A stretch of DNA of 64,000 nt from Clostridiales bacterium. Its GTDB lineage: Bacteria; Bacillota; Clostridia; Peptostreptococcales; Anaerovoracaceae. The DNA is taken from contig JABZIP010000005.1 in NCBI GenBank assembly GCA_015258265.1, positions 11,521 to 75,520 of the forward strand, given 5' to 3'. The notes beneath the pieces are model-generated. The model saw only the letters and a program-made list of their open reading frames with translations. It had not been told where the DNA came from and did not search any database. Positions 8,997 through 28,777 of the stretch are shown here, piece by piece. The stretch's first letter is position 1. Each line of letters begins with the position of its first letter. The translations under genes and the position numbers were made by a program.

Positions 8997-10263
8997 CTTC
9001 TCTTATTCCTTTTAAATAATTTGAAAATGAAACCTCATGTCCATTTCCTGTGGGTTCGTAGTACCGTATCTTTTCTCGATACAAATTATCAGGCAAGTAC
9101 TGCTGTTTGACATATCCGCCATAATCATGCGGATACTTGTAATCTACACCTCTGCCCAGTTCTTTAGCTCCTGCGTAATGCGAGTCCTTCAAATGATTCG
9201 GTACATCATCTATTTTTTTCTTTCTTAAATCCGACAACGCTCGTTCAATTCCGACATATGCACTATTGGATTTAGGTGCTGCCGACATAGTTACAACCGC
9301 CTGAGCCAGATTTATCCTAGCTTCCGGAAACCCGACAATCAACGCAGCCTGGATGCACGAATTTACTATAACAATTGCATTAGGATATGCCATACCTATG
9401 TCCTCGCTTGCCATAACAAGCAGCCTTCTTGCTATCATTTGCAAGTCCGCTCCTCCGTCTATCAATCGTGCCAAATAATGCAACGCCGCATCCGGATCGC
9501 TACCTCGTACCGACTTTTGAAGAGCAGAAAGCAAGTTGTACTTATCCTCGCTTTTATTATAAAATACAGCTTTTCGTTGAAAGGCTTCTTTCACCTTCGC
9601 CTGTGTAACAGTTTCCCCTTGATTCAAAGAATCCACAATATACGAAACCGTATCCAATGCAACTCTGGCATCCCCTCCCGAAAGTTCTGCTATCAGTCCC
9701 AAGGCATCCTCTTCGTAAGTAATTCCGAGAGTTGAAATCCCCAGCTGTGAATCCGAAAAGGCGCGTCTTAACAATTTTACCAAATCGTCCTCACTAAGTC
9801 GCTTAAACTCATATATATTGCGCACCCTGCTTAAAATAGCGTCATTGATAGAAAAATACGGATTTTCTGTAGTGCTTCCTATAAAGTGCAACACACCTTC
9901 CTCAAGCGCCTTAAGCAAACTGTCTTGCTGTAATTTATTCCATCTATGAACTTCGTCAACATAAAGATATGTGGACTTTGCCTCCAAGCCGTAAAATCTG
10001 AACTCCGCCTCTTCTATTACCGCCTTCAGTTCCTTTACTCCCGATGATACAGCATTGATTTCAACAAAATAGCCATCGCACATGCTCGCTATAATCCTCG
10101 CAAGCGTGGTTTTACCTGTTCCTGACGGTCCAAAAAAAATTGCGGACTCAAATTTCCCATTCATTATCGAATTATACAAAAGAGATCCTTTATATAAAAA
10201 GTGTTCTTGCCCGACAAACTCATCCAGACTCTTTGCTCGCATCCGCGTTGAAAATGGTACCAT
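8980..10263 (-). CDS. rarA: replication-associated recombination protein A (AAA+ ATPase)
   Basis: 427 aa, GPSGTGKTTLARIIA Walker A, MgsA/RarA C-terminal domain. Start overlaps the apbE stop by 1 nt (TAATG). Confidence 0.9.
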   Translation of the reverse strand: MVPFSTRMRAKSLDEFVGQEHFLYKGSLLYNSIMNGKFESAIFFGPSGTGKTTLARIIASMCDGYFVEINAVSSGVKELKAVIEEAEFRFYGLEAKSTYLYVDEVHRWNKLQQDSLLKALEEGVLHFIGSTTENPYFSINDAILSRVRNIYEFKRLSEDDLVKLLRRAFSDSQLGISTLGITYEEDALGLIAELSGGDARVALDTVSYIVDSLNQGETVTQAKVKEAFQRKAVFYNKSEDKYNLLSALQKSVRGSDPDAALHYLARLIDGGADLQMIARRLLVMASEDIGMAYPNAIVIVNSCIQAALIVGFPEARINLAQAVVTMSAAPKSNSAYVGIERALSDLRKKKIDDVPNHLKDSHYAGAKELGRGVDYKYPHDYGGYVKQQYLPDNLYREKIRYYEPTGNGHEVSFSNYLKGIREDEDDN

Positions 10264-11291
10264 TACTTATATTCCTTTAAATTCATATTCTTAGTTGTAA
10301 TTATCTCACCGCTTTTCAGAATAATATCAGCTTCGAATCCTTCCATTTGCTCAATCAAAGCAAGTCCCTTTTCACTGCCGAGCAGCAAACAGATACTGCT
10401 TAGTGCATCTGCATCTACAGAATATCCCTTACTTGCAACTATGCTCACCGATTCCACATCTGTGTCCGCAGGATAGCCTGTAGCAACATCCAGTATATGA
10501 TGATATAACACGCCGTCTTGTTCAAATGCCCTCTCATAAATTCCTGAAGTAACCACTGTGGCATCTGCCACCTCAACATATCCTACAATATCCTTTCTCT
10601 CTGTAAACGGCTTTTCTATTCCTATATTCCAAGGTTTCCCGTCAGACTTAGTTCCGATAGCCACAACATTACCGCCAAGATTTACAAGCGCATGACTTGC
10701 TCCTTGATCTTCTATATACTTTGTTACTTTATCCGCTATGTATCCTTTAGCTATTCCGCCCAAATCAATCGCCACCGCAGTATTCAAAAGACGCGCAAAA
10801 TACAAACCGTTTTCTTCTTTCAACTCTATATTTCGATAATCTATATTTACTAGAGCATTTTCAATCTTTTCCTGCTCAGGCACTTTAGGTTTATCCGCTT
10901 GAAAATCCCAAAGTTCAGCCAGCTTTCCAACCGTTACATCAAACTTTCCTTCAGAAAGCTGCGCATAGTATAAACTTTTTTGTAAAAGTTCATATGTATT
11001 TTCTGTAATTTCAACAAATTCCCCATTAGAGTGATTGACATTATATATATCGCTGCCCTTAACAGTTCTGCTCAATATGTTTTCATAATCCCTGCACAGT
11101 GCAAAAGCTCCCTTTAAAATTTTATTCGCATCTTCTTCCGGCATCCCATAAATACTTATAGAACAAACGGTATCCAAAAGATCGTACTGAGTATCGCTTA
11201 TCACTTCTTCGTCCGCAGACCGGCAAGCACTGAAAGAAAACAACAAAGCCACCAGCAGGCTAAAAGCCAAAGTTTTTCTCAAATTCATCAT
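10263..11291 (-). CDS. apbE: FAD:protein FMN transferase (ApbE family) lipoprotein
   Basis: Signal peptide with lipobox FSAC, DLGGIAKGY motif, ApbE fold. Predicted extracytoplasmic flavinylating enzyme. Confidence 0.85.
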   Translation of the reverse strand: MMNLRKTLAFSLLVALLFSFSACRSADEEVISDTQYDLLDTVCSISIYGMPEEDANKILKGAFALCRDYENILSRTVKGSDIYNVNHSNGEFVEITENTYELLQKSLYYAQLSEGKFDVTVGKLAELWDFQADKPKVPEQEKIENALVNIDYRNIELKEENGLYFARLLNTAVAIDLGGIAKGYIADKVTKYIEDQGASHALVNLGGNVVAIGTKSDGKPWNIGIEKPFTERKDIVGYVEVADATVVTSGIYERAFEQDGVLYHHILDVATGYPADTDVESVSIVASKGYSVDADALSSICLLLGSEKGLALIEQMEGFEADIILKSGEIITTKNMNLKEYK

Positions 11292-17858: not shown

Positions 17859-18242
17859 CTATTTGATTTCAGTTTTCCAAAGACCGTGCAAATTGCAGTA
17901 TTCATAAACTGCCAGCGGCTTTTCACCTTCGCTTAGTAGGAACTCTGCGCACGGTTTTTCGCCGGGTTTAAGATCCTTTCTATAAGCCCCTTTGCTAGTT
18001 TCCAAATAGATGAACATAATATAATGCTCCTCAAGCATAGGATGCTCAACCTCTCCAACAACTGCTGTAACTTTGTTACCCTCAACTGTTACTACCGGTG
18101 TGTGCTTTTCCAAAGCGGCATCTACCGTATTTGCAACAAGCTCCTTCATTTCCTCACCGCAACAGACAAGTTTGTCGTTGAACTCTCCAAAAACTTCCAA
18201 TATATGTCCACCGTTTGCACATTTAAAAAATTTATTTGCCAT
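17859..18242 (-). CDS. dfx: desulfoferrodoxin-type superoxide reductase with degenerate N-terminal centre I
   Basis: 127 aa; SOR centre II ligands present (EKHTP, HxxxxH, CNLH). N-terminal domain has C-x4-H...CC instead of CxxC...CC. Confidence 0.75.
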   Translation of the reverse strand: MANKFFKCANGGHILEVFGEFNDKLVCCGEEMKELVANTVDAALEKHTPVVTVEGNKVTAVVGEVEHPMLEEHYIMFIYLETSKGAYRKDLKPGEKPCAEFLLSEGEKPLAVYEYCNLHGLWKTEIK

Positions 18243-18332: not shown

Positions 18333-18962
18333 TCAATTTTGCGCACCGGCAAGAGCAGCTTTAACCGCTCCTTTGATGCCGTTTGAACTGTAAGTAGCTC
18401 CGGCAACCGCATCCACATCCGCACTTTGTGCTGCCAAGATTTTACCGATTACCGCCTTTGCATCATCGATATACGGAGAATCCTCTTTGTGCGAAATAAT
18501 ACTTATTGACTTGATTGCATCCGCCTTCAATACAACCGATACCGTAATATTATCGACATATCCTTTGGCACTTCCCGTAAAAGTTCCGTCTTTGTACTTT
18601 TGCGCAGGAACTGTAGGTTCCGCCTTTTCCGGTTCGGTTTTCAATATTTCTTTCTTTTCAGGCTCTGCTTTAGCAGTTGCCGTTTTTTCCGATTCCGCCT
18701 TTACGGATTTTGATTTTTCAGCTTCATCCGCCGGCTTTGCTTCCTGTTTTTCTACCGGTTTGTCTGCAGTTTTTTCTTCCGATTTTTTTGCTTCTGCCGT
18801 AGGTTCCTCCTCTTTTTTTTGCGTTTCGCTTTCCTGCTTTTCGGAAACTGCCTTCACAGTCTCACTTTTATCCCCTTCGATTTTATCAGTTTTTTCACAA
18901 CCCGACAAAAATACGCTTACACAGATTGCCAGCACAAATACCAACAACTTGACTTTTTTCAT
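18333..18962 (-). CDS. FMN-binding domain lipoprotein (ApbE substrate type)
   Basis: Lipobox FLSGC, Lys/Glu/Ala-rich linker, C-terminal FMN_bind domain with flavinylation motif DAVAGATYSS. Start taken at MKKVKLL. Confidence 0.8.
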   Translation of the reverse strand: MKKVKLLVFVLAICVSVFLSGCEKTDKIEGDKSETVKAVSEKQESETQKKEEEPTAEAKKSEEKTADKPVEKQEAKPADEAEKSKSVKAESEKTATAKAEPEKKEILKTEPEKAEPTVPAQKYKDGTFTGSAKGYVDNITVSVVLKADAIKSISIISHKEDSPYIDDAKAVIGKILAAQSADVDAVAGATYSSNGIKGAVKAALAGAQN

Positions 18963-19047
18963 AATCTCCTCCATATACATTTTTTAATTTCATCCACGTT
19001 TATATTTTTTATTTCATTCTTTTGCTCGCATACTTGCTTCAGAGCAC

Positions 19048-19752
19048 CTAATGTTTTTCGCTTTTTTGCCCTAGCGCCTTTCTGATTCTCAAAAATGCGT
19101 ACATACCGAATACAACCGTATAAATGGCAGAGTCGATAACATAATGCCAAAATACGTCGTAATGCTCAAGTTGCCGCATTTGCAGAGCTATTGATACAAA
19201 AATCAACATTACATGAATATATATGAGCATATAGAACGGATACGCCAATCTTTGCAGTTTTTTCCAACTTTTCGCTTTCATCTTTTTCCTTACGCTCTTA
19301 AATGATGTGATCATCAAAGGCAACATAACAGCATCCAAAACTATCGTCAGGATAGTAGCAATTACAAAAGGTGTACTCAAGCGCTCTCTTGATGTAAAAA
19401 GCCACACTATATAATTTTTCCCATAGAAAAAATTGTGCACAAGTGTCAATATACAAGCTATAATCGAAAGCTCTGCACGAACCGACATCAGCCGTATCTT
19501 GATTTGTGTACCGTTTTTAAATATAGCAGCCCACATCACAAGTGTAAAAAGTGCAGTCGCCACTATTCCCCGTTCAAACAGCATAGATATCTCATGAAGC
19601 AGGGCATTTGTACGCATAATCTCAAAGCCTGCCGCCGATATGCAAAATATGACAAATGCACCTATGTAGTAAACAGGTGCGTATTTTTTAATAGATTTGT
19701 GCAAAAACATCACAACGGCAAGTAAAACCACCGTAGTTAAAATAAATTTCAT
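19048..19752 (-). CDS. ferric-reductase-like transmembrane (MsrQ/YedZ-type, di-heme b) protein
   Basis: 234 aa, 6 predicted TM helices with conserved His in TM helices (HNFFYG, YIHVML). Lies immediately upstream of the FMN-binding lipoprotein. Confidence 0.6.
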   Translation of the reverse strand: MKFILTTVVLLAVVMFLHKSIKKYAPVYYIGAFVIFCISAAGFEIMRTNALLHEISMLFERGIVATALFTLVMWAAIFKNGTQIKIRLMSVRAELSIIACILTLVHNFFYGKNYIVWLFTSRERLSTPFVIATILTIVLDAVMLPLMITSFKSVRKKMKAKSWKKLQRLAYPFYMLIYIHVMLIFVSIALQMRQLEHYDVFWHYVIDSAIYTVVFGMYAFLRIRKALGQKSEKH

Positions 19753-19849
19753 AGTACATCCTTATTTGTTTTATATACTTTAACTTTATAATCTTTAAAT
19801 ACTATAATAAAAAATTAAACTTTTTAAATTTTTGTGTTTAGTCTGCAAT

Positions 19850-19873
19850 AGGAGTGGCTGAAAAGCCACTCCT
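19850..19873 (-). terminator. 10-bp perfect stem-loop (AGGAGTGGCT-GAAA-AGCCACTCCT) 8 nt downstream of the SLH gene stop; weak U-tract
   Basis: Seen directly in the sequence; there is no strong T-run on the minus strand. Confidence 0.4.
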
Positions 19874-19880
19874 AAATTTG

Positions 19881-22094
19881 TTAAGGTTTAGAAATCCATA
19901 AATCATTTTTTTCACCCAATAATTTTCTGAGTTCACCATTACCATTTAGCATGTCATCAAAGTTTTCTATATTAATACTAATAACTATATTAGTTCCTCC
20001 TATAACTCTAACCCTTTTTATCTTTAAATCTGTATGACTTATTGCTTGCCCAGACTTATTATAAAACTGAATGTTATCGGCATTTATGCCACTTAAACTT
20101 GAACCCAAAGTTTGAAAATCTTCTTGTTTAAGTTGATATCTGGCTTTATTTTTTACTAATGTAATTTTTACTTTTTTCCCATCCTTAGAAATTTCCAAAT
20201 AATCAGGTACATTATTAGCATTCGACACATCAGCTGCCTCTATCGTTATTTTGTGTTCATAAAATACACTGTCATCTTCTTTATATGCGATTTTTAAGCT
20301 TATCTGTTTGCCTGCATCATTCGGATCATCTGTTATAACATCTCCTATATTCAAAGGTGAACCATTTTTCGTTATAGTCAAATAATTTGTGTAATTTAAC
20401 TTGTTCACATTTTCGCTATATTTATCCTCATTTTCAGCAATCAATTTTACAGCAAAATCATCACCAATTTCAAATTTATCGCCTACCTTAACTTTGTTTT
20501 TTATTCCGGTAATATATTCAATGCCTATAATTTTCCTCTGCTCTTCCTCCGTAACATTCGTAAAATCTTTTTTATAATCGATACGATATGTTTCAAATTC
20601 AAACATTTTTTCTGCATTTAAATTGTGTGTGTTTTCTTGCAACAAGGTGTCTTTCTCCGATTGTGCAACATCTATATATAGACTTCCGCTTTTTTTATGC
20701 GCATCACCTCTATAATGCTTATCGCCTACCTCTTTCAGCGTTACCCTGCTACCGTCGCTCTTGATAAGCTCGATATCCTGCAATTCTTTGTGCGCTAAAT
20801 CAATTCCCACCTCGTATCGGAACTCCGAATTTTTTCCGTGGCTCACAACTATGTCTTGATAAGTAATTTCTTGCGGTGATTTTTTATCCTTCAAAACAAG
20901 CCTTATTTTCTCAATTTGCACATATATCGGTTTTACCGAAAATTGCACTTCTTTCAAAAGCTCCATGCCGGATTCTTTGTGTTTCCAATGTATTTTATAA
21001 TTTGCACGATAATTTGTATTGTCAGTTCTATTTATCGGTTTTGTAATATCTATTTTTTCGCCGTTTTTGTCGGTTACGAATACTTCAATCCCCTCGCTGT
21101 CAAAGTCCTTGGCTTGTATCTCGCGCCCTAATTTCAGTACCGAGTTGCGATTTGATTTTGTAACGGGATTTGGTAGAGAAGTGTGCACCGGAATCAATCT
21201 GATACTTGCCGGCAAAAGCTCAATTTTCTCACCGAAATATTGCGGAACGCTCTCATACGCATGATCTGCCAAGAATTTTTCTTTTTCCTTTTCATCCGAT
21301 AATGCAGCCAGCGCTTTCTTTTGCTCCGCAGTAAGCTCATGCTTTTCAAATTTACCCGGTGCATTTATCAACCAAAAGCCCTTGTATTTTTGCTGTTTTC
21401 CACTTTTCGCATCATTGAGCGCATTTTTGAAGCCTTTTCTAAAACCTTCCGCACTTTTTGTCGAACCGCTAACAGCATCAACAATAGCACCAACACCCTT
21501 TTTCTCATTAAATTGCTCATAAATTTTCTTTAATGGTGTTTTCTTTACATAATCTACTACTCTTTCCGAACCGCCTGTATATTTCCAATCATCATCATCG
21601 TCCACGAAAAACTCAAGCGCCGCGTCTACAACGGTCCCCCTTGCTATGGATATTTTCGCTATATTCTTTTTAGGGAAATCGAATCCTTTATCTCCATTTT
21701 TGCTTTGTCTTTCCGCACTCGAAAATCCATACCCCTCACCGTAATATGTGCCATCTTTAAAAGTCGAATCTATTTCCGATTCTTGCGGTGCATGATACTC
21801 TCCCAGTTTTAAATTCATAGCCTTTAATTGAGAGCCTGTTTTAACCTCAATTTCGTATTTAATTGAAGGTTCGAATATATACTCCCCGTTTTCATTTTTA
21901 GCTGCAAAATTTATTTTGCTCGAATCTGTATTTATTATTCGTTTTGCTATTTCACCTCTATATACAGCTTCTTTTCCTGTATCAACCGGCTTGGCTTTTA
22001 TTTTTACCTCTTCTACACTGCTCACAAGCATTTTTAGAAGTCCGGAATTTTGATCGCCTGCAACCGCCAAATCTCCCTTTTGGTTCATAGTCAA
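19881..22094 (-). CDS. SLH/FMN-binding surface protein paralog 1, C-terminal segment after frameshift
   Basis: 737 aa. The +1 frame continues the interrupted FMN_bind domain (SNGLVRAVENAVIAGN), then a third FMN_bind (VSGSTKSAEGF) and Ig-like repeats. TTG/ATG start overlaps the upstream stop. Confidence 0.6.
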   Translation of the reverse strand: MTMNQKGDLAVAGDQNSGLLKMLVSSVEEVKIKAKPVDTGKEAVYRGEIAKRIINTDSSKINFAAKNENGEYIFEPSIKYEIEVKTGSQLKAMNLKLGEYHAPQESEIDSTFKDGTYYGEGYGFSSAERQSKNGDKGFDFPKKNIAKISIARGTVVDAALEFFVDDDDDWKYTGGSERVVDYVKKTPLKKIYEQFNEKKGVGAIVDAVSGSTKSAEGFRKGFKNALNDAKSGKQQKYKGFWLINAPGKFEKHELTAEQKKALAALSDEKEKEKFLADHAYESVPQYFGEKIELLPASIRLIPVHTSLPNPVTKSNRNSVLKLGREIQAKDFDSEGIEVFVTDKNGEKIDITKPINRTDNTNYRANYKIHWKHKESGMELLKEVQFSVKPIYVQIEKIRLVLKDKKSPQEITYQDIVVSHGKNSEFRYEVGIDLAHKELQDIELIKSDGSRVTLKEVGDKHYRGDAHKKSGSLYIDVAQSEKDTLLQENTHNLNAEKMFEFETYRIDYKKDFTNVTEEEQRKIIGIEYITGIKNKVKVGDKFEIGDDFAVKLIAENEDKYSENVNKLNYTNYLTITKNGSPLNIGDVITDDPNDAGKQISLKIAYKEDDSVFYEHKITIEAADVSNANNVPDYLEISKDGKKVKITLVKNKARYQLKQEDFQTLGSSLSGINADNIQFYNKSGQAISHTDLKIKRVRVIGGTNIVISINIENFDDMLNGNGELRKLLGEKNDLWISKP

Positions 22095-23380
22095 AGATGA
22101 TTCGTCGATATTACCTGCGATAACCGCATTCTCAACAGCTCTAACCAGTCCGTTGCTCCTGATACCGCAGATATTTTCTCTGTCGATGTTATATCTGCAA
22201 ATTGTTTCAATATGGAGCTTTTCACACTCGCCAAATAGCTTACATCCTCGCTATTTTCCTCTATAACAACATTTTTTATCACATTGTCTTTTACGGTTAC
22301 CTTTACATTCATCTGCCCCCTATATCCTTGCGCAGAACCTGAATACTCCTTATCCGACAATTTTTTCAGATATCTTGAAAGGTCAATACCGCTATAAAGC
22401 GCTGTCGAATGTTTTCTATTGGCGCCTGTACTTCCTACCGTTCCGATGCTCCCCTCTCCTTTTTGCTGTGATATGCAATCCTTTACAGCGTCCTTGATTG
22501 CATTGCACGAAAGAGTTGCTCCGGAAATATTGTCTATTCCTTCCACGCTTTGTTTTTCAATAATTTGTGCTATAATAGCTTTTGCTCTGCTTAAATACGA
22601 GCCTGTTTCATTGTCGGAAATTATCTTAATATCAACTATTTTCCCTTTATCAAAAAGCACCTTCAGCTTCATCGTACCGCCGTAGCCGGCTCCCGTGCCT
22701 TCAAATGCCTGCTCGTTGATATTTTTGAGTACCTCTGCCATTTTTCTTTCGCTCTTTGAAAGAATCAGAACCGCTTGTGCCCTACTTATGCCTTTCTTCG
22801 GATTCAATCTGTTAAATTCTCCGCTAATTACACCTGCTGCTACCAGTACCGATATAGCTTCCCTCGCATAATCCGATATAGCTCCCGCATCGGAAAATTT
22901 CGATATATCCGCGACTTTTTGTCCTTCTTTACCCTTTGGATAAGTGAGCCTATAAAGCATTACGAAAGCCTGTTCTCTGGTAATTGCAACTTCCGGCGAC
23001 ATAGTGTTCGCACCTGTCCCCTTCATGTACCCCGCCTGTAACGCCTTCGCCATGTCGGATCTGTACCATGCATTGCTACTTACATCCGTAAAATCGGATA
23101 TCTTGCTGCTTTCTTCAGAAAATTGCATGATTCTGTTGATTACCGCAGCATATTCAGCTCTGCTCATATTTTTATCAGGGAATACCCTCCCGCTTTCATC
23201 TCCTTTTAGATAGCCTTTTTTGTTAAAATCTTTAAGCGTATTTACCATCCAGTGTCCATCTATGTCCGACGGCATTATACCTTTGGCTTCCTCTGCATTT
23301 GCAGCTGTAAAAAATCCGGTCATTGATACAAATCCGAATACAAATGCAAAAGTCAAAATGGAAAGTCGTCTAATATTCAA
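22091..23380 (-). CDS. SLH/FMN-binding surface protein paralog 1, N-terminal segment (signal peptide, 3 SLH, FMN_bind 1, truncated FMN_bind 2)
   Basis: 429 aa. First approximately 220 aa are identical to the 24853..28551 protein. Ends ISAVSGAT followed by out-of-frame residues. Confidence 0.65.
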   Translation of the reverse strand: MNIRRLSILTFAFVFGFVSMTGFFTAANAEEAKGIMPSDIDGHWMVNTLKDFNKKGYLKGDESGRVFPDKNMSRAEYAAVINRIMQFSEESSKISDFTDVSSNAWYRSDMAKALQAGYMKGTGANTMSPEVAITREQAFVMLYRLTYPKGKEGQKVADISKFSDAGAISDYAREAISVLVAAGVISGEFNRLNPKKGISRAQAVLILSKSERKMAEVLKNINEQAFEGTGAGYGGTMKLKVLFDKGKIVDIKIISDNETGSYLSRAKAIIAQIIEKQSVEGIDNISGATLSCNAIKDAVKDCISQQKGEGSIGTVGSTGANRKHSTALYSGIDLSRYLKKLSDKEYSGSAQGYRGQMNVKVTVKDNVIKNVVIEENSEDVSYLASVKSSILKQFADITSTEKISAVSGATDWLELLRMRLSQVISTNHL

Positions 23381-23508
23381 TTTTGTTCCTCCTCAATATT
23401 TCATGTATTTTAGTTGTACTTTGTTAGCATATGCTAACTATACGAAGGGAATTATATCATTAGCCATAGGCAACTGTCAATATTTTGAACACAAAAAAAC
23501 ATTTGTGT

Positions 23509-23562
23509 CCAAATGAATTTATACATGTGTAAAAAAACAGGCTTGAATAAAATTCAAACCTG
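23509..23562. repeat. 54-bp direct repeat copy A, containing a bidirectional rho-independent terminator (A7-stem-T7)
   Basis: CCAAATGAATTTATACATGTGTAAAAAAACAGGCTTGAATAAAATTCAAACCTG; copy B at 24754-24806 has 3 differences. Confidence 0.8.
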
Positions 23563-23582
23563 TTTTTTTAATGCGTTTACGC

Positions 23583-24650
23583 TCACTCCAGCTCGCGCCT
23601 GGTTCTACGCATAAACTCAACTAATTGCTCTTTGGTCGGTAAATGGAGCATATATGTCGATACAAACAACTGATTATCCATACCTGATAAAGCATACTCG
23701 ACCATCTCAGTTCCCTTATCTGTACAAAGCAGAATACCTATCGGCAAATTGTCGCCTTCTACCATTTCATTCTTTTTATAGTACGCCACATAGGAATTCA
23801 ATTGCCCAAGATCCTCATGCTTGAATTCATCGTTCTTCAGTTCAATGATGACATTACAATGAAGCAACTTGTTATAGAAAACCATATCTATGAAATAATA
23901 CTTATCGTCTATTACAATTCTCTTTTGTCTGGCTTCAAAGCAGAAACCTTCACCTAGTTCAAGTATGAACTCTTGCAGATGATCTATTAAAGCCTGTTCC
24001 AGAACTGATTCAGATACCGCATCACCCGGATTCAGTCCAAGGAATTCAAATGTAAACGGATCTTTTATTGATAATGCTGTGCTTCTGGCATTATCCTCTG
24101 ACAGCTTCATCAACAACTCTGGCTTCTTACTGATTCCAGCTCGCACGAATAAATTCGTCTTAATCTGTCTGCGCAGTTCTCTAACGCTCCAATTACATTT
24201 AATCGCCTCTGCTTCATAGAAGTATCTTTCCATCGGGTCATCAAGAATCATAATTTCCCTTATGTGTGAAAACGAAAGATTGTCAACCAGCAATTCCGGT
24301 TCCATAATAAATTCGTGCGACAATGTCGCACTTTTTTGAAAATCAAGCAACCCCAATTGGTGCGACACTGTCGCACCAATCTGCGGATACATAACATAAA
24401 ACTGTCTGCACCACTTGAATAGCGTAGAATTTAATCCCTTTTGATCGATCTGCCTCTCCAGATTGTTTAAAAGATTAGTTCCATACTCTGCTCGATCACT
24501 ACCACCTTGCTCATACTCAACTATATAGTAGCCAATAGCCCAGTTCCTAAGTGTCATCAGTTTGTTAACGGCATGCTTTGCCACGTTGCCCGCCTCGTCA
24601 TTGAGCTTTTTTATGCTGTCTGCAAGCGTCATGAATTTGATATCCGACAT
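23583..24650 (-). CDS. yhcG: YhcG/DUF1016 family PD-(D/E)XK nuclease
   Basis: 355 aa. C-terminal IDMVFYNKLLHCNVIIELK...GQLNSYVAYY matches the YhcG_C PD-(D/E)XK core (D...ELK); N-terminal YhcG_N-like domain. Confidence 0.75.
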   Translation of the reverse strand: MSDIKFMTLADSIKKLNDEAGNVAKHAVNKLMTLRNWAIGYYIVEYEQGGSDRAEYGTNLLNNLERQIDQKGLNSTLFKWCRQFYVMYPQIGATVSHQLGLLDFQKSATLSHEFIMEPELLVDNLSFSHIREIMILDDPMERYFYEAEAIKCNWSVRELRRQIKTNLFVRAGISKKPELLMKLSEDNARSTALSIKDPFTFEFLGLNPGDAVSESVLEQALIDHLQEFILELGEGFCFEARQKRIVIDDKYYFIDMVFYNKLLHCNVIIELKNDEFKHEDLGQLNSYVAYYKKNEMVEGDNLPIGILLCTDKGTEMVEYALSGMDNQLFVSTYMLHLPTKEQLVEFMRRTRRELE

Positions 24651-24753
24651 AATGATTCCTCTCGTTTCTAATAAGAAATTTCCCTATTTCGTTTATATTT
24701 TGATTATATCTTATTAGCACTCCTGTTACAACTACATTATCTCACGACAATCT

Positions 24754-24806
24754 CCAAATAAATTTGTACATGTGTAAAAAACAGGCTTGAATAAAATTCA
24801 AACCTG
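24754..24806. repeat. 54-bp direct repeat copy B, acting as terminator of the upstream SLH gene
   Basis: CCAAATAAATTTGTACATGTGTAAAAAACAGGCTTGAATAAAATTCAAACCTG; hairpin followed by a T6 run on the minus strand. Confidence 0.8.
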
Positions 24807-24852
24807 CTCTTTAATTTTAGTTTACTGCAATTTGCTTATTGGGATTGCGCTA

Positions 24853-27800
24853 TTAATCTTCGTCATGTCCTTCTTCGCCGCCGTTATTTTCGCCATCCTG
24901 ACTGTCATCATCACCCTCTTGGTCATCACCCTGATCATCGCCGTCATCCTGATTGCCCTGCTCATCCTCGTTATCCTTTTGGTCGTCTTCGTTTGCAGGT
25001 GGATTTGGCTGTTCACCCGGAGTGCCCGGGTTAGCAGGCTCTTGTGGCTTTTCAGGTACAGTTGATTGTTCGCTATCCGACGATTTTTTTACCATAAGAT
25101 ATTCCTTGGACTTAATCTCCAATCTTAAATCTCCATACTCAAATGTTACCTTTAAATTCTTTAAAAATGCATTTAACGGTGTCAATACAGTCTCATTTTC
25201 AGGATCTGTAGATATTCCATAATCATCAAAGAATTCAGGAGTTACATCTTTTACCTTTCCATCACTACTTTTCAATGTAACAATCATGCCCGCAACATCA
25301 AATTTTTCTCCAATAAAGTACTGCATTTTGGGTAGTTTTTTGATTTCTATAGAAGTTGTTTTCTCAATATCATAATCATCTTGAGGCTCTTGCGACTCTT
25401 CTTTTTCTACATCAAAAGTGATTTTGTAGAAAAAGTTTACATTAAGGTCTTTTTCGTGATCCTTCTCATCCATAGAAAATTTTAATTCTTTGTTTTCATC
25501 ATTTTTATCTATTTTCAATTCATCTTTTGCGATGATATACTTAGAATCCGAATTCGCTGAATCTGTAGGATTTTTTCTAACAATTCTTAACTTAAGATTT
25601 TTTCCTACAAAATTATCGTTCCATTTAGCTCTGCTAATAGCTACTTTTTGATGAACATTTATGTTATTTTCATCGTACGGTGCACCCGGAGTTGGCTTTG
25701 CCTTTTCAGGATTATCTACGTCTTTCCAATCCTCATTTCCAATTTTATATTGCATCCCCACAGTCCAATTTTCATTATATTCATCATTGACTACTATCGA
25801 AAATACATCTTCCCTAAGTGAAGGTCCATGCTCTATCAATATAGGTACTGCATATGTAGGAAAATCTTTGAGCTTCATACCATCAGTTATAAGCGTTCCG
25901 TTTTTCGTTTTCATGGTTATGCCATTTCCTGCAAATTGGTCAATCCCGATTTCACTTATAGTGCCGTTTTTGTTTATAAGTTTTACTTTTAGTTTGCTCA
26001 AGTTTAAAGGTAATATCCTATTTGTGAAAACTTTTTTGTCCAAAATTCCTGTAACTTCAATCTCATTAATTTCATTATTGGTTTCATTATCATGAGCTGA
26101 AAGTTCAAGCGCATTACCAACAGAATTTGCAATACCGCCTGCCGTCAATGTCGCTCCCGAAACGCTGTCAAACAGATCGTCTTTATCATACTCTCCTGCA
26201 AGATATGTCTTTACCGCTTTTGAAATTTCTCGAACCACATCAGTTGAAGAAGCCGAGTTTGAAATTTCTTGAACTATTTTTGCACAATTTTTACCTAAAA
26301 GTTCTGTAGCTTTTGCATTTCTTTCAGAATTGATCTTAATATTTTCAATTTCACCGGTATATTTATAACAACACCTAACGACAGCAATATTTTTGCGAGC
26401 ATTTTCACCGGAAATAAAATTTAATAATCCTTCTGCTTTTTCTATATAGCCCGGATCTTCACTTATTAAGCTATCGCCCGGAAGTATCTCAATGCTCTTA
26501 ACCACTCCATTTGTAATTTTTACCTTTGTCTTTACCGTTGCTGTATCATTAAAACCTTTACCAACTCCTATAAATATGCCATCCTTAAGTTTTCTATCCA
26601 CAGTCAGTTCTTTTATAAGTTTGTCCGATGCAGTTTTAGCCGCCTTTTCACTTGCCTCAAGTGTTGATGCAGCATCATTTGAGCCGTTTTTAACTACATT
26701 AGGAGATTGTAAAACAAGTTTAAATCCATCACTTTTATATTCTTTTTGTTCTTTGTTAAATTCACTTACCGATTTAGGCAATCTTAAATTTTCAACCTTA
26801 CTTGTTGAAGTAATGGTTACATTTCCATTCTTTGCCTTTGCACGCAACGTTTTTACATTGGCAGCTATGGTAACTTCCTTATCTCCGGTTTCTAAATCTT
26901 TTGCTAATTCTATTTGCTTTATTTTAGCATTTTCAAGCGTTTTGATAATTGCGGGTGTTTTAACAAGTACATTTTCCAGCTTCGTCGAACTGTCTACTAC
27001 AAGTCTTGGTCTTTTGCCATTATTCTTAGCTATTATAACATCTCCCTCGACTTTCGTATTTTTCAAATATATACCATGCGATCCTCCACCATTTATTATC
27101 AGTTTCCCGCTTATTGTAACATTCTCCAATATTACATCGCCATCGGCAACTTTTTCTGATACTGTAATATCCTTTTCTATTGTCACATTTTTTACTGCAA
27201 CTTTATTACCTACTAAGTTGGCCGATATGATTTTTTTCCCATTTCCATCATACTGCCCGCTTATTGATTTTTTACCACCGGCGTTTTCAAGAGCATTTAC
27301 AACCGCATTAATAAGTCCTATGCTGCTTTTTGTTGCTCCGGATACCGTATCCACTTTAGTTGATTGTGTATTTATTATTTTTTGTATAATACCTTTTGCG
27401 CCTTCATCTCTTAAATAGCCTGCATCATCATGGTTCGCATATTCAATTTTGCTTATCTTTCCATCCTGCACAGTAACTTTCACACTCATAGAGTTTCTAC
27501 GGTATCCATCTGCCCTTCCCTCATACGTTCCATTATTCAGCTCTGCAAAATCAACTTCCTGTTTAGCTACAGCCACGCCACCACCTTTACTGCTTCCTGT
27601 GCTTCCGACAGTACCTATGCTGCCCTCCCCTTTTTGCTGAGATATGCAATCCTTGACAGCATCTTTTATTGCATTACAAGAAAGAGTTGCACCTGAAACA
27701 TTGTCTATGCCCTCTACGCTTTGTTTTGCGATTATCTGCGCTATGATTTTCTTTGCCCTTTCAAGATACGAGCCTGTTTCATTATCGGAAACTATCTTAA

Positions 27801-28551
27801 TATCAACTATTTTCCCTTTATCGAAAAGCACCTTCAGCTTCATCGTGCCGCCGTAGCCGGCTCCCGTGCCTTCAAATTCCTGCTCATTGATATTTTTGAG
27901 TACCTCTGCCATTTTTCTTTCGCTCTTTGAAAGAATCAGAACCGCTTGTGCCCTACTTATGCCTTTCTTCGGATTCAATCTGTTAAATTCTCCGCTAATT
28001 ACACCTGCTGCTACCAGTACCGATATAGCTTCCCTCGCATAATCCGATATAGCTCCCGCATCGGAAAATTTCGATATATCCGCGACTTTTTGTCCTTCTT
28101 TACCCTTTGGATAAGTGAGCCTATAAAGCATTACGAAAGCCTGTTCTCTGGTAATTGCAACTTCCGGCGACATAGTGTTCGCACCTGTCCCCTTCATGTA
28201 CCCCGCCTGTAACGCCTTCGCCATGTCGGATCTGTACCATGCATTGCTACTTACATCCGTAAAATCGGATATCTTGCTGCTTTCTTCAGAAAATTGCATG
28301 ATTCTGTTGATTACCGCAGCATATTCAGCTCTGCTCATATTTTTATCAGGGAATACCCTCCCGCTTTCATCTCCTTTTAGATAGCCTTTTTTGTTAAAAT
28401 CTTTAAGCGTATTTACCATCCAGTGTCCATCTATGTCCGACGGCATTATACCTTTGGCTTCCTCTGCATTTGCAGCTGTAAAAAATCCGGTCATTGATAC
28501 AAATCCGAATACAAATGCAAAAGTCAAAATGGAAAGTCGTCTAATATTCAA
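24853..28551 (-). CDS. giant SLH-anchored multi-FMN-binding surface protein (paralog 2)
   Basis: 1232 aa. Signal peptide, 3 SLH repeats, FMN_bind x2 (VSGATLSCN, VSGATKSS), a right-handed beta-helix-like repeat region, FMN_bind 3 (VSGATLTAGG), Ig-like repeats, and a 50-aa acidic D/E/Q/G C-terminal tail. Confidence 0.8.
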   Translation of the reverse strand: MNIRRLSILTFAFVFGFVSMTGFFTAANAEEAKGIMPSDIDGHWMVNTLKDFNKKGYLKGDESGRVFPDKNMSRAEYAAVINRIMQFSEESSKISDFTDVSSNAWYRSDMAKALQAGYMKGTGANTMSPEVAITREQAFVMLYRLTYPKGKEGQKVADISKFSDAGAISDYAREAISVLVAAGVISGEFNRLNPKKGISRAQAVLILSKSERKMAEVLKNINEQEFEGTGAGYGGTMKLKVLFDKGKIVDIKIVSDNETGSYLERAKKIIAQIIAKQSVEGIDNVSGATLSCNAIKDAVKDCISQQKGEGSIGTVGSTGSSKGGGVAVAKQEVDFAELNNGTYEGRADGYRRNSMSVKVTVQDGKISKIEYANHDDAGYLRDEGAKGIIQKIINTQSTKVDTVSGATKSSIGLINAVVNALENAGGKKSISGQYDGNGKKIISANLVGNKVAVKNVTIEKDITVSEKVADGDVILENVTISGKLIINGGGSHGIYLKNTKVEGDVIIAKNNGKRPRLVVDSSTKLENVLVKTPAIIKTLENAKIKQIELAKDLETGDKEVTIAANVKTLRAKAKNGNVTITSTSKVENLRLPKSVSEFNKEQKEYKSDGFKLVLQSPNVVKNGSNDAASTLEASEKAAKTASDKLIKELTVDRKLKDGIFIGVGKGFNDTATVKTKVKITNGVVKSIEILPGDSLISEDPGYIEKAEGLLNFISGENARKNIAVVRCCYKYTGEIENIKINSERNAKATELLGKNCAKIVQEISNSASSTDVVREISKAVKTYLAGEYDKDDLFDSVSGATLTAGGIANSVGNALELSAHDNETNNEINEIEVTGILDKKVFTNRILPLNLSKLKVKLINKNGTISEIGIDQFAGNGITMKTKNGTLITDGMKLKDFPTYAVPILIEHGPSLREDVFSIVVNDEYNENWTVGMQYKIGNEDWKDVDNPEKAKPTPGAPYDENNINVHQKVAISRAKWNDNFVGKNLKLRIVRKNPTDSANSDSKYIIAKDELKIDKNDENKELKFSMDEKDHEKDLNVNFFYKITFDVEKEESQEPQDDYDIEKTTSIEIKKLPKMQYFIGEKFDVAGMIVTLKSSDGKVKDVTPEFFDDYGISTDPENETVLTPLNAFLKNLKVTFEYGDLRLEIKSKEYLMVKKSSDSEQSTVPEKPQEPANPGTPGEQPNPPANEDDQKDNEDEQGNQDDGDDQGDDQEGDDDSQDGENNGGEEGHDED

Positions 28552-28777
28552 TTTTGTTCCTCCTCAATATTTCATGTATTTTAGTTGTACTTTGTTAGCA
28601 TATGCTAACCACACGAAGGGAATTATATCATTAGCCATCGGCAACTGTCAATATTTTGAACACAAAAAAACATTAATTTTTTCGAAAGAACAATATGTGT
28701 ATTTACAAAAAATAAGGAGATACCGTAGTTTCTCCCTATTTTTAAATTTAATACCCTATATACCATAAAGCGGTCTA

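Follow-up and report, generated by a model that had tools for sequence, protein, structure and literature searches.

The window, meaning the whole 64-kb stretch of DNA that was analysed, comes from the metagenome-assembled genome (MAG) of an uncultured oral 'Clostridiales bacterium', and the gene considered here is yhcG, which encodes a protein of the YhcG/DUF1016 family. All local genes lie on the minus strand, and on that strand the order is ogg, a promoter, SLH_B, the repeat copy T2, an 81-nt segment with a promoter-like site, yhcG, the repeat copy T1, a second promoter and SLH_A (Table 1). As had been stated in the preliminary description of this DNA, yhcG stands alone between two tandem paralogs, both of which carry SLH and FMN_bind domains.

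Table 1. Features of the yhcG locus and its surroundings (window coordinates)
Feature	Position	Strand	Details
yhcG coding sequence (CDS)	23583..24650	minus	355 aa; DUF1016_N helical domain, linker, YhcG_C PD-(D/E)XK domain (E214, D255, E270, K272)
Putative imported unit	23575..24671	minus	ribosome-binding site, CDS and 8 nt downstream; homology to E. minutum stops sharply at both ends
Repeat copy T1, predicted yhcG terminator	23508..23572	minus	hairpin 23538-23562 between A7 and T7, then 22 conserved nt
Repeat copy T2, predicted SLH_B terminator	24753..24815	minus	hairpin 24782-24806; T6 downstream on the minus strand only
Segment between T2 and imported unit	24672..24752	minus	81 nt; promoter-like TTGTAA-17-TATAAT (24731-24703)
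GTAAAC hexamer	23575..23580	minus	3' junction of imported unit; repeated upstream of T2 at 24820-24825; candidate microhomology
Palindrome unit 1	24356..24380	no strand	ATTGGTGCGACA-N-TGTCGCACCAAT; perfect, 12-nt arms, in-frame, codes IGATVSHQL
Palindrome unit 2	24315..24331	no strand	GTGCGACA-N-TGTCGCAC; 8-nt arms, in-frame, codes SATLSH; same core, 45 nt from unit 1
SLH_B	24853..28551	minus	1232 aa; SLH x2, FMN_bind x3; predicted to be terminated by T2
SLH_A	19881..23380	minus	split here into open reading frames of 429 and 737 aa; intact (1159-1170 aa) in other samples
1.08-kb repeat	copy A 22425..23503; copy B 27596-28674	minus	1,079 nt, 96% identical
Promoter TTGACA-18-TGnTATAAT in 1.08-kb repeat	23480-23451 (copy A); 28651-28622 (copy B)		perfect promoter
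SLH_A terminator	19849-19874		hairpin unrelated to T
Ferric-reductase-like membrane protein	19048-19752		putative flavin/electron-transfer cluster member
FMN_bind lipoprotein	18333-18980		putative flavin/electron-transfer cluster member
Desulfoferrodoxin	17859-18242		putative flavin/electron-transfer cluster member
ApbE flavin transferase	10263-11291		further along the putative flavin/electron-transfer cluster

The assignment of the yhcG product to the PD-(D/E)XK nucleases of the YhcG/DUF1016 family was borne out by both of its domains. The window protein matched Pfam YhcG_C (PF06250) with E=1.8e-53 and 181 bits (cut-off 32.5) and DUF1016_N (PF17761) with E=3.3e-25 and 89 bits (cut-off 32.8), and it contains the motif IDMVFYNKLLHCNVIIELK. 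The catalytic columns were read from an alignment with 20 family representatives of 35-50% identity, the range that window YhcG has with most representatives. E214, D255, E270 and K272 occupy the E-D-ExK columns of the family, with no variation at E214 and K272, conservation of at least 90% at D255 and an E/D column at E270. The same two-domain architecture and E-D-ExK motif are found in E. coli K-12 YhcG (b3220, COG4804 family). By these alignments the window protein is a genuine member of YhcG/DUF1016. Its E-D-ExK active site is intact, and it is therefore probably an active DNA nuclease.

The gene is flanked by direct repeats. A 54-nt core, 51 of 54 positions of which are identical as originally described, was extended by BLAST to a 65-nt repeat, here called T, with 91% identity between T1 and T2. 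T occurs twice in the window and not once in 100 shuffles. Each copy folds on the minus strand as an 11-bp hairpin CAGGTTTGAAT-TTT-ATTCAAGCCTG (z=-6.7 for T1 and -5.3 for T2), which is followed by T7 in T1 or T6 in T2 and then by 22 conserved nucleotides, and the orientation of these U-runs matches that of all the local genes. With a predicted stable hairpin directly before a U-run, both copies have the features of intrinsic (Rho-independent) terminators. T2 lies 38 nt past the SLH_B stop codon and T1 10 nt past that of yhcG, so T2 would terminate SLH_B and T1 would terminate yhcG. A consensus terminator scan listed neither copy, perhaps because the A/T runs extend the stem. Both copies had been described as bidirectional terminators, and the sequence suggests this for one of them only: T1 has A7 and T7 on both sides and looks bidirectional, whereas T2, with A6 on one side, runs into CTCTTT on the plus strand, where it folds no better than shuffles (z=-1.7).

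The differences between T1 and T2 all lie outside the 25-nt hairpin, a pattern that fits selection for termination in both copies and, through it, transcriptional insulation. Both copies were also present in 10 of 10 other samples of the species, with the copy-specific differences fixed and the hairpin identical throughout. The constancy of the hairpin, between the two copies and across the samples, makes it plausible that the T copies insulate yhcG transcriptionally from its neighbours.

To look for further copies, a degenerate pattern of the T hairpin was run against 185,579 species-representative genomes and the Joint Genome Institute (JGI) metagenomes. T was absent from the species genomes, in which the pattern matched only chance or tRNA-like palindromes, and in the JGI metagenomes it was present on a single 2.9-kb contig, which is the window locus with both copies. 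An Rfam search over the repeat gave nothing above thresholds. With two copies in the window, no matches in the genomes and one locus in JGI, a dispersed T element or common terminator family was rejected, and the repeat turned out to be specific to this locus rather than a genome-wide terminator. The scope of this uniqueness is the 64-kb window, the contigs seen and the database scans, among which there was no closed genome of the species.

We then considered whether the yhcG cassette is an insertion, as the preliminary description had proposed, and an empty site in a related species indicates that it is. In this relative (L031; Ogg 64% identical) the gene order is ogg, SLH_B, SLH_A, a gene for a 236-aa protein, an FMN lipoprotein gene and a desulfoferrodoxin gene, and the spacer of 205 nt between SLH_B and SLH_A contains one terminator and no yhcG. 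The terminator in this spacer aligns with T and runs on into a region homologous to the SLH_A promoter. Since L031 has both SLH paralogs without yhcG, the two-paralog arrangement predates yhcG.

The closest yhcG was found in another oral member of the Anaerovoracaceae, [Eubacterium] minutum ATCC 700079, in which the gene follows the ATP synthase operon at an unrelated locus. Its protein is 95% identical to window YhcG, and the DNA is 90.2% identical over 1097 nt; only this stretch is homologous, and it starts 21 nt before the ATG and ends 8 nt beyond the stop codon. Outside the species, no relative of Ogg exceeded 68% identity and the Ogg proteins of named Anaerovoracaceae were at about 50%. 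Because yhcG has 90% DNA identity at an unrelated E. minutum locus against at most 68% for Ogg, the gene was most likely acquired horizontally as a bare single gene.

These comparisons also bear on the converse history, in which yhcG and both T copies were ancestral to the clade and L031 lost the cassette through recombination between T1 and T2. Such recombination leaves exactly one terminator, as L031 has, and larger deletions between repeats may occur within the species. However, vertical descent is hard to reconcile with a yhcG that is 90% identical in DNA at an unrelated E. minutum locus when the housekeeping Ogg reaches at most 68% in protein. In addition, the L031 terminator has strongly diverged from T while T1 and T2 are 91% alike, which suggests that the duplication is younger than the species split. 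The 9% divergence between T1 and T2 is close to the 10% between the window and E. minutum yhcG genes. We consider loss in L031 an unlikely account of the two arrangements.

To trace the second copy of the terminator, the yhcG cassette was compared by BLAST with the yhcG loci of E. minutum, of a conjugative element and of two other chromosomal contexts. Homology was confined to the CDS in every case, and import of T together with yhcG was rejected. No other examined yhcG locus carries T, and the duplicated terminator would therefore be local DNA copied at insertion. A Campbell-type integration would produce the repeats in another way: a circular DNA composed of T, promoter and yhcG would recombine, by homologous or site-specific means, with the chromosomal terminator and leave T on both sides. 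Direct repeats around a 1245-bp unit are the expected product of such an event, and the unit is of discrete length (start-to-start spacing 1244-1245 nt). On the other hand, the donor would have to carry T, which is missing from the other examined yhcG loci, with homology to five other contexts ending at the CDS, and from the 185,579 species genomes; no integrase or recombinase gene lies within 10 kb, and 65 bp is a short substrate for RecA-dependent recombination. Campbell-type integration thus appears quite improbable, and the earlier suggestion of recombination between terminator copies, which needs a T-carrying donor, is doubtful on the same grounds.

A transposon or insertion sequence was likewise not supported, as there was no transposase gene within 10 kb, no terminal inverted repeats were found around the yhcG unit and the 65-nt duplication is much longer than the 2-15 bp of a transposase target duplication. 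Flanking direct repeats were absent from four other yhcG loci, and long direct repeats were consequently discarded as a general signature of yhcG insertion.

The preliminary description had offered co-duplication with the 3' end of the SLH gene as a second explanation of the repeats: T1 and T2 would derive from an SLH gene that was duplicated with its 3' end, and yhcG would have arrived separately. The SLH paralogs do have a 1.08-kb segment in common that is 96% identical, but this segment comprises the 5' end and promoter and not the 3' end. Moreover, SLH_A has at its 3' end a different hairpin terminator, which L031 shares; T1 follows yhcG and not an SLH gene; and in L031 a single terminator already separates the two paralogs. 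Upstream of the T copies, the only sequence in common is the hexamer GTAAAC. Co-duplication is, in our assessment, extremely unlikely.

Overall, we think it probable that yhcG was horizontally acquired and inserted between the SLH_B terminator and the SLH_A promoter with duplication of the terminator. From an ancestral order of SLH_B, terminator, promoter and SLH_A, the insertion would have brought the 81-nt promoter-bearing segment and the 1.1-kb unit into the short spacer between terminator and promoter, and a terminator segment of about 65 nt would have been duplicated in the process. SLH_B would have kept T2, and yhcG would now end at T1, a copy situated shortly before the SLH_A promoter. 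The likeliest route would be an illegitimate one, in which microhomology-mediated repair or template switching copied the target; involvement of a transposase or an integrase would be less likely, as would recombination between terminators already in place. The GTAAAC hexamers, one at the 3' junction of the imported unit and one just upstream of T2, are compatible with microhomology-mediated template switching in which the terminator was copied again.

Several points weigh against this reconstruction. The empty site is documented in one related species with an assembled SLH_B-SLH_A junction, and recombination between T1 and T2 could itself recreate an apparent empty site. The polarity, gain here as opposed to loss in L031, rests on the transfer argument and not on phylogeny. 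The 81-nt promoter segment falls outside the homology with E. minutum yhcG, a 6-nt microhomology in AT-rich DNA could be due to chance, and the species genome may hold copies of T beyond the window and the contigs seen.

Morons and other free-standing single-gene insertions at terminator-promoter junctions are foreign genes with their own promoter and terminator that lie between resident units and disrupt neither, an arrangement that window yhcG resembles. The yhcG cassette differs from them in that its terminator appears to be a copy of the resident one instead of an imported one, and in that the host locus is chromosomal and not a prophage. It would represent a clean, datable case of a bare nuclease gene landing between two highly expressed genes, neither of which was disturbed because the insertion copied the resident terminator. 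It is useful for understanding the spread of single accessory genes, and in itself it is unsurprising.

We also examined the genomic settings of other YhcG relatives. The next homologues, with 79-81% identity ('MULTISPECIES Bacillota', L011-L016), lie in a conjugative element in the order ParB, SpaA/TED adhesin, sortase, YhcG, ArdC, primase and RelB/ParE; like window yhcG, this copy adjoins genes for cell-surface proteins. Other relatives, in an overall range of 79-84% identity, were solitary genes in unrelated chromosomal sites, and the homology again covered the CDS only. Relatives on viral contigs are common, with 161 confirmed in IMG/VR. The E. minutum yhcG unit, too, starts just past a hairpin, TTTTCGAC-gcaacga-GTCGAAAA (L027 9920-9945). 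Insertions may thus favour sites beside hairpins, although these are two cases and could be a coincidence.

While comparing yhcG genes, we noticed that a 26-nt stretch is 92-96% conserved by BLAST in homologues that are otherwise 74-76% identical. In the window gene this stretch is the perfect palindrome listed as unit 1, and a second in-frame unit lies nearby (Table 1). YhcG/DUF1016 genes carry, in the part that codes for the interdomain linker, in-frame arrays of one to three perfect palindromes of about 27 nt with the form (A/G)ATT-N9-N-N9'-AAT(T/C). The centre of the palindrome is almost always at codon position 1, and the last unit in most subfamilies immediately adjoins the conserved L-S-W-S-H motif. 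The window gene has the family's linker motif (...L-S-[WF]-S-H) and in-frame palindromic units; its subfamily differs in having A-T-[VL]-S-H units instead of Q-T-x-S and a longer linker. The palindromes of different lineages differ widely and yet stay symmetric, as in CAATTTGCCAGACA-C-TGTCTGGCAAATTG, CAATTGCGTCCGCA-G-TGCGGACGCAATTG and CAGATTGTGAACGCATGCGTTCACAATCTG.

The survey of palindromes took in 85 genes: 80 from viral contigs (L039-L118), together with those of the window, E. coli K-12 and E. minutum and three others. Perfect arms of at least 10 nt were present in 34 of the 85 genes and arms of at least 8 nt in 55. When the synonymous codons of each gene were shuffled 200 times, 30 of the 85 genes beat all shuffles of the same gene, and for each of these 30 individually the palindromes could be rejected as a by-product of the amino-acid sequence. 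A complementary view came from an ungapped alignment of 51 distinct 41-mers, in which 88% of cells pair as compared with 64% in shuffles and 26-40% with slid partner columns; the paired fraction is inflated by the choice of 41-mers with 10 or more of 14 pairs, a selection bias of which the codon shuffles are free. Changes on both sides were seen in 13 of the 14 pairs. It is well supported by this pattern of substitution that self-complementarity is kept by compensatory changes that alter the encoded amino acids. Based on these comparisons, we are highly confident that the yhcG palindromes exist and are under selection.

Mismatches in the palindromes gave an indication of the level at which they may act. 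G:T mismatches were not favoured over A:C (7 versus 15, which are small numbers), and a sense-strand RNA hairpin tolerating G:U was therefore not supported. The pattern is more in line with a palindrome at the DNA level than with such an RNA hairpin, as far as these small numbers go.

In E. coli K-12, yhcG (L119 8130-8240) carries three units with a period of 39 nt, and the last is a perfect palindrome of 33 nt. Of 5426 complete E. coli genomes, 3408 contain this 33-mer, each as a single copy located in yhcG, and the window palindrome likewise occurs once in the window. A dispersed element akin to the repetitive extragenic palindromic (REP) sequences was rejected, given this single-copy occurrence per E. 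coli genome and in the window. The three E. coli hairpins fold at -61 kcal/mol (z=-11) and the two units of the window gene fold as DNA at -24 kcal/mol (z=-6.4). Rfam contained no family above thresholds over the palindromes, and no description of them was found in the searchable literature.

An AlphaFold model of window YhcG (mean predicted local distance difference test, pLDDT, of 75.8) consists of a helical N-terminal domain and an alpha/beta nuclease core, joined by a linker that is poorly defined. A sequence-based search found no solved structure matching YhcG, and no solved relative was found for the 200-aa helical N-terminal domain. The modelled C-terminal domain superposes on EndoMS/NucS (5gke, 2vld) with a root-mean-square deviation of 3.5-3.7 A over 93 columns at 22-24% identity. 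The nearest solved folds for the nuclease core are NucS/EndoMS, Cas4 SSO0001 and MGME1, with weak scores (E about 0.01), and the likeness to NucS/EndoMS, to Cas4 (SSO0001) and to archaeal enzymes of the Holliday-junction-resolvase type, also with weak scores, concerns this core only. The fold comparison is in agreement with Kosinski et al. 2005 (PMC1189080), who grouped YhcG by profile comparison with Holliday-junction-resolvase/YraN/DUF91-like nucleases.

Since palindromic DNA can be extruded as a four-way junction and the fold of the encoded nuclease resembles that of junction resolvases, we propose a link between them. Tentatively, the palindromes could be cis-acting DNA hairpins or cruciforms that are recognised by the Holliday-junction-resolvase-like nuclease their own gene encodes, an idea that we regard as rather doubtful. 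Possible roles of such a link are self-regulation, the sensing of single-stranded or supercoiled DNA, and mobility of the gene itself. Alternatively, the palindromes might serve in mRNA processing or translation control, or as a recombination site. In either case the family-wide intragenic palindromes matter more than the cassette: the window gene is a further member of a known, uncharacterised family, whereas a conserved hairpin or cruciform inside the gene for a junction-resolvase-like nuclease is a concrete, testable handle on YhcG/DUF1016 function, for which E. coli K-12 with its native yhcG is a possible starting point.

The family is large, with about 15,000 clusters at 50% identity, and is common on phages, conjugative elements and restriction-modification loci. 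It is also listed as a defence candidate: PADLOC model PDLC04807 (PDC-S02, a candidate single-gene defence system) matches residues 5-354 of window YhcG, essentially its full length, with E=2.9e-119, and about 28 other PDC-S02 models match it too. We infer that YhcG may act on foreign or structured DNA in conflicts with mobile elements. In the sole reported test, which speaks against such a role, a PDC-S02 representative failed to protect E. coli from T4, T5 or T7 (bioRxiv 10.1101/2024.09.26.614923), and PDC-S02 is itself a candidate system. No biochemical characterisation of any YhcG/DUF1016 member was found in the searchable literature. The preliminary description had related the family to defence islands and mobile DNA, which does not apply to the window locus: yhcG lies outside any defence island, and no defence or mobility gene (transposase, integrase or recombinase) is present within 10 kb.

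The genes within 10 kb on either side encode AddB, ACP, a Rex-like protein, ferredoxin, an Asp23-like protein, Ogg, the SLH flavoproteins, a ferric-reductase-like protein, an FMN lipoprotein, desulfoferrodoxin and Tad pilus proteins. The locus from 10263 to 30458 looks like an extracellular flavin or electron-transfer cluster. The 1.08-kb repeat of the SLH genes consists of their 5' ends, including the promoter, the leader and the first approximately 318 codons, and the end of copy A is separated from T1 by a gap of 4 nt. Mosaics of copies A and B vary among samples (L001-L005, L120-L125), which indicates ongoing gene conversion between the paralogs as judged from these patterns, and the SLH 5' ends are homogenised in the relative L031 as well.

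Some contigs of the species depart from the arrangement in the window. In six of them (L121, L122, L125 and three similar ones; 125-171 kb), ogg directly adjoins one SLH_A-type gene and both SLH_B and yhcG are missing, which is either a 5.17-kb deletion between the 1.08-kb repeats in some strains or an assembly collapse. In the window, SLH_A lacks 13 nt near 22154 by comparison with three other samples and is frameshifted, which makes it a pseudogene of this strain or reflects an assembly error. On another contig (L001 6925-9798), the position of SLH_B holds a 957-aa FMN_bind protein with a later start and no SLH domain match, which suggests an N-terminal variant or truncation of SLH_B.

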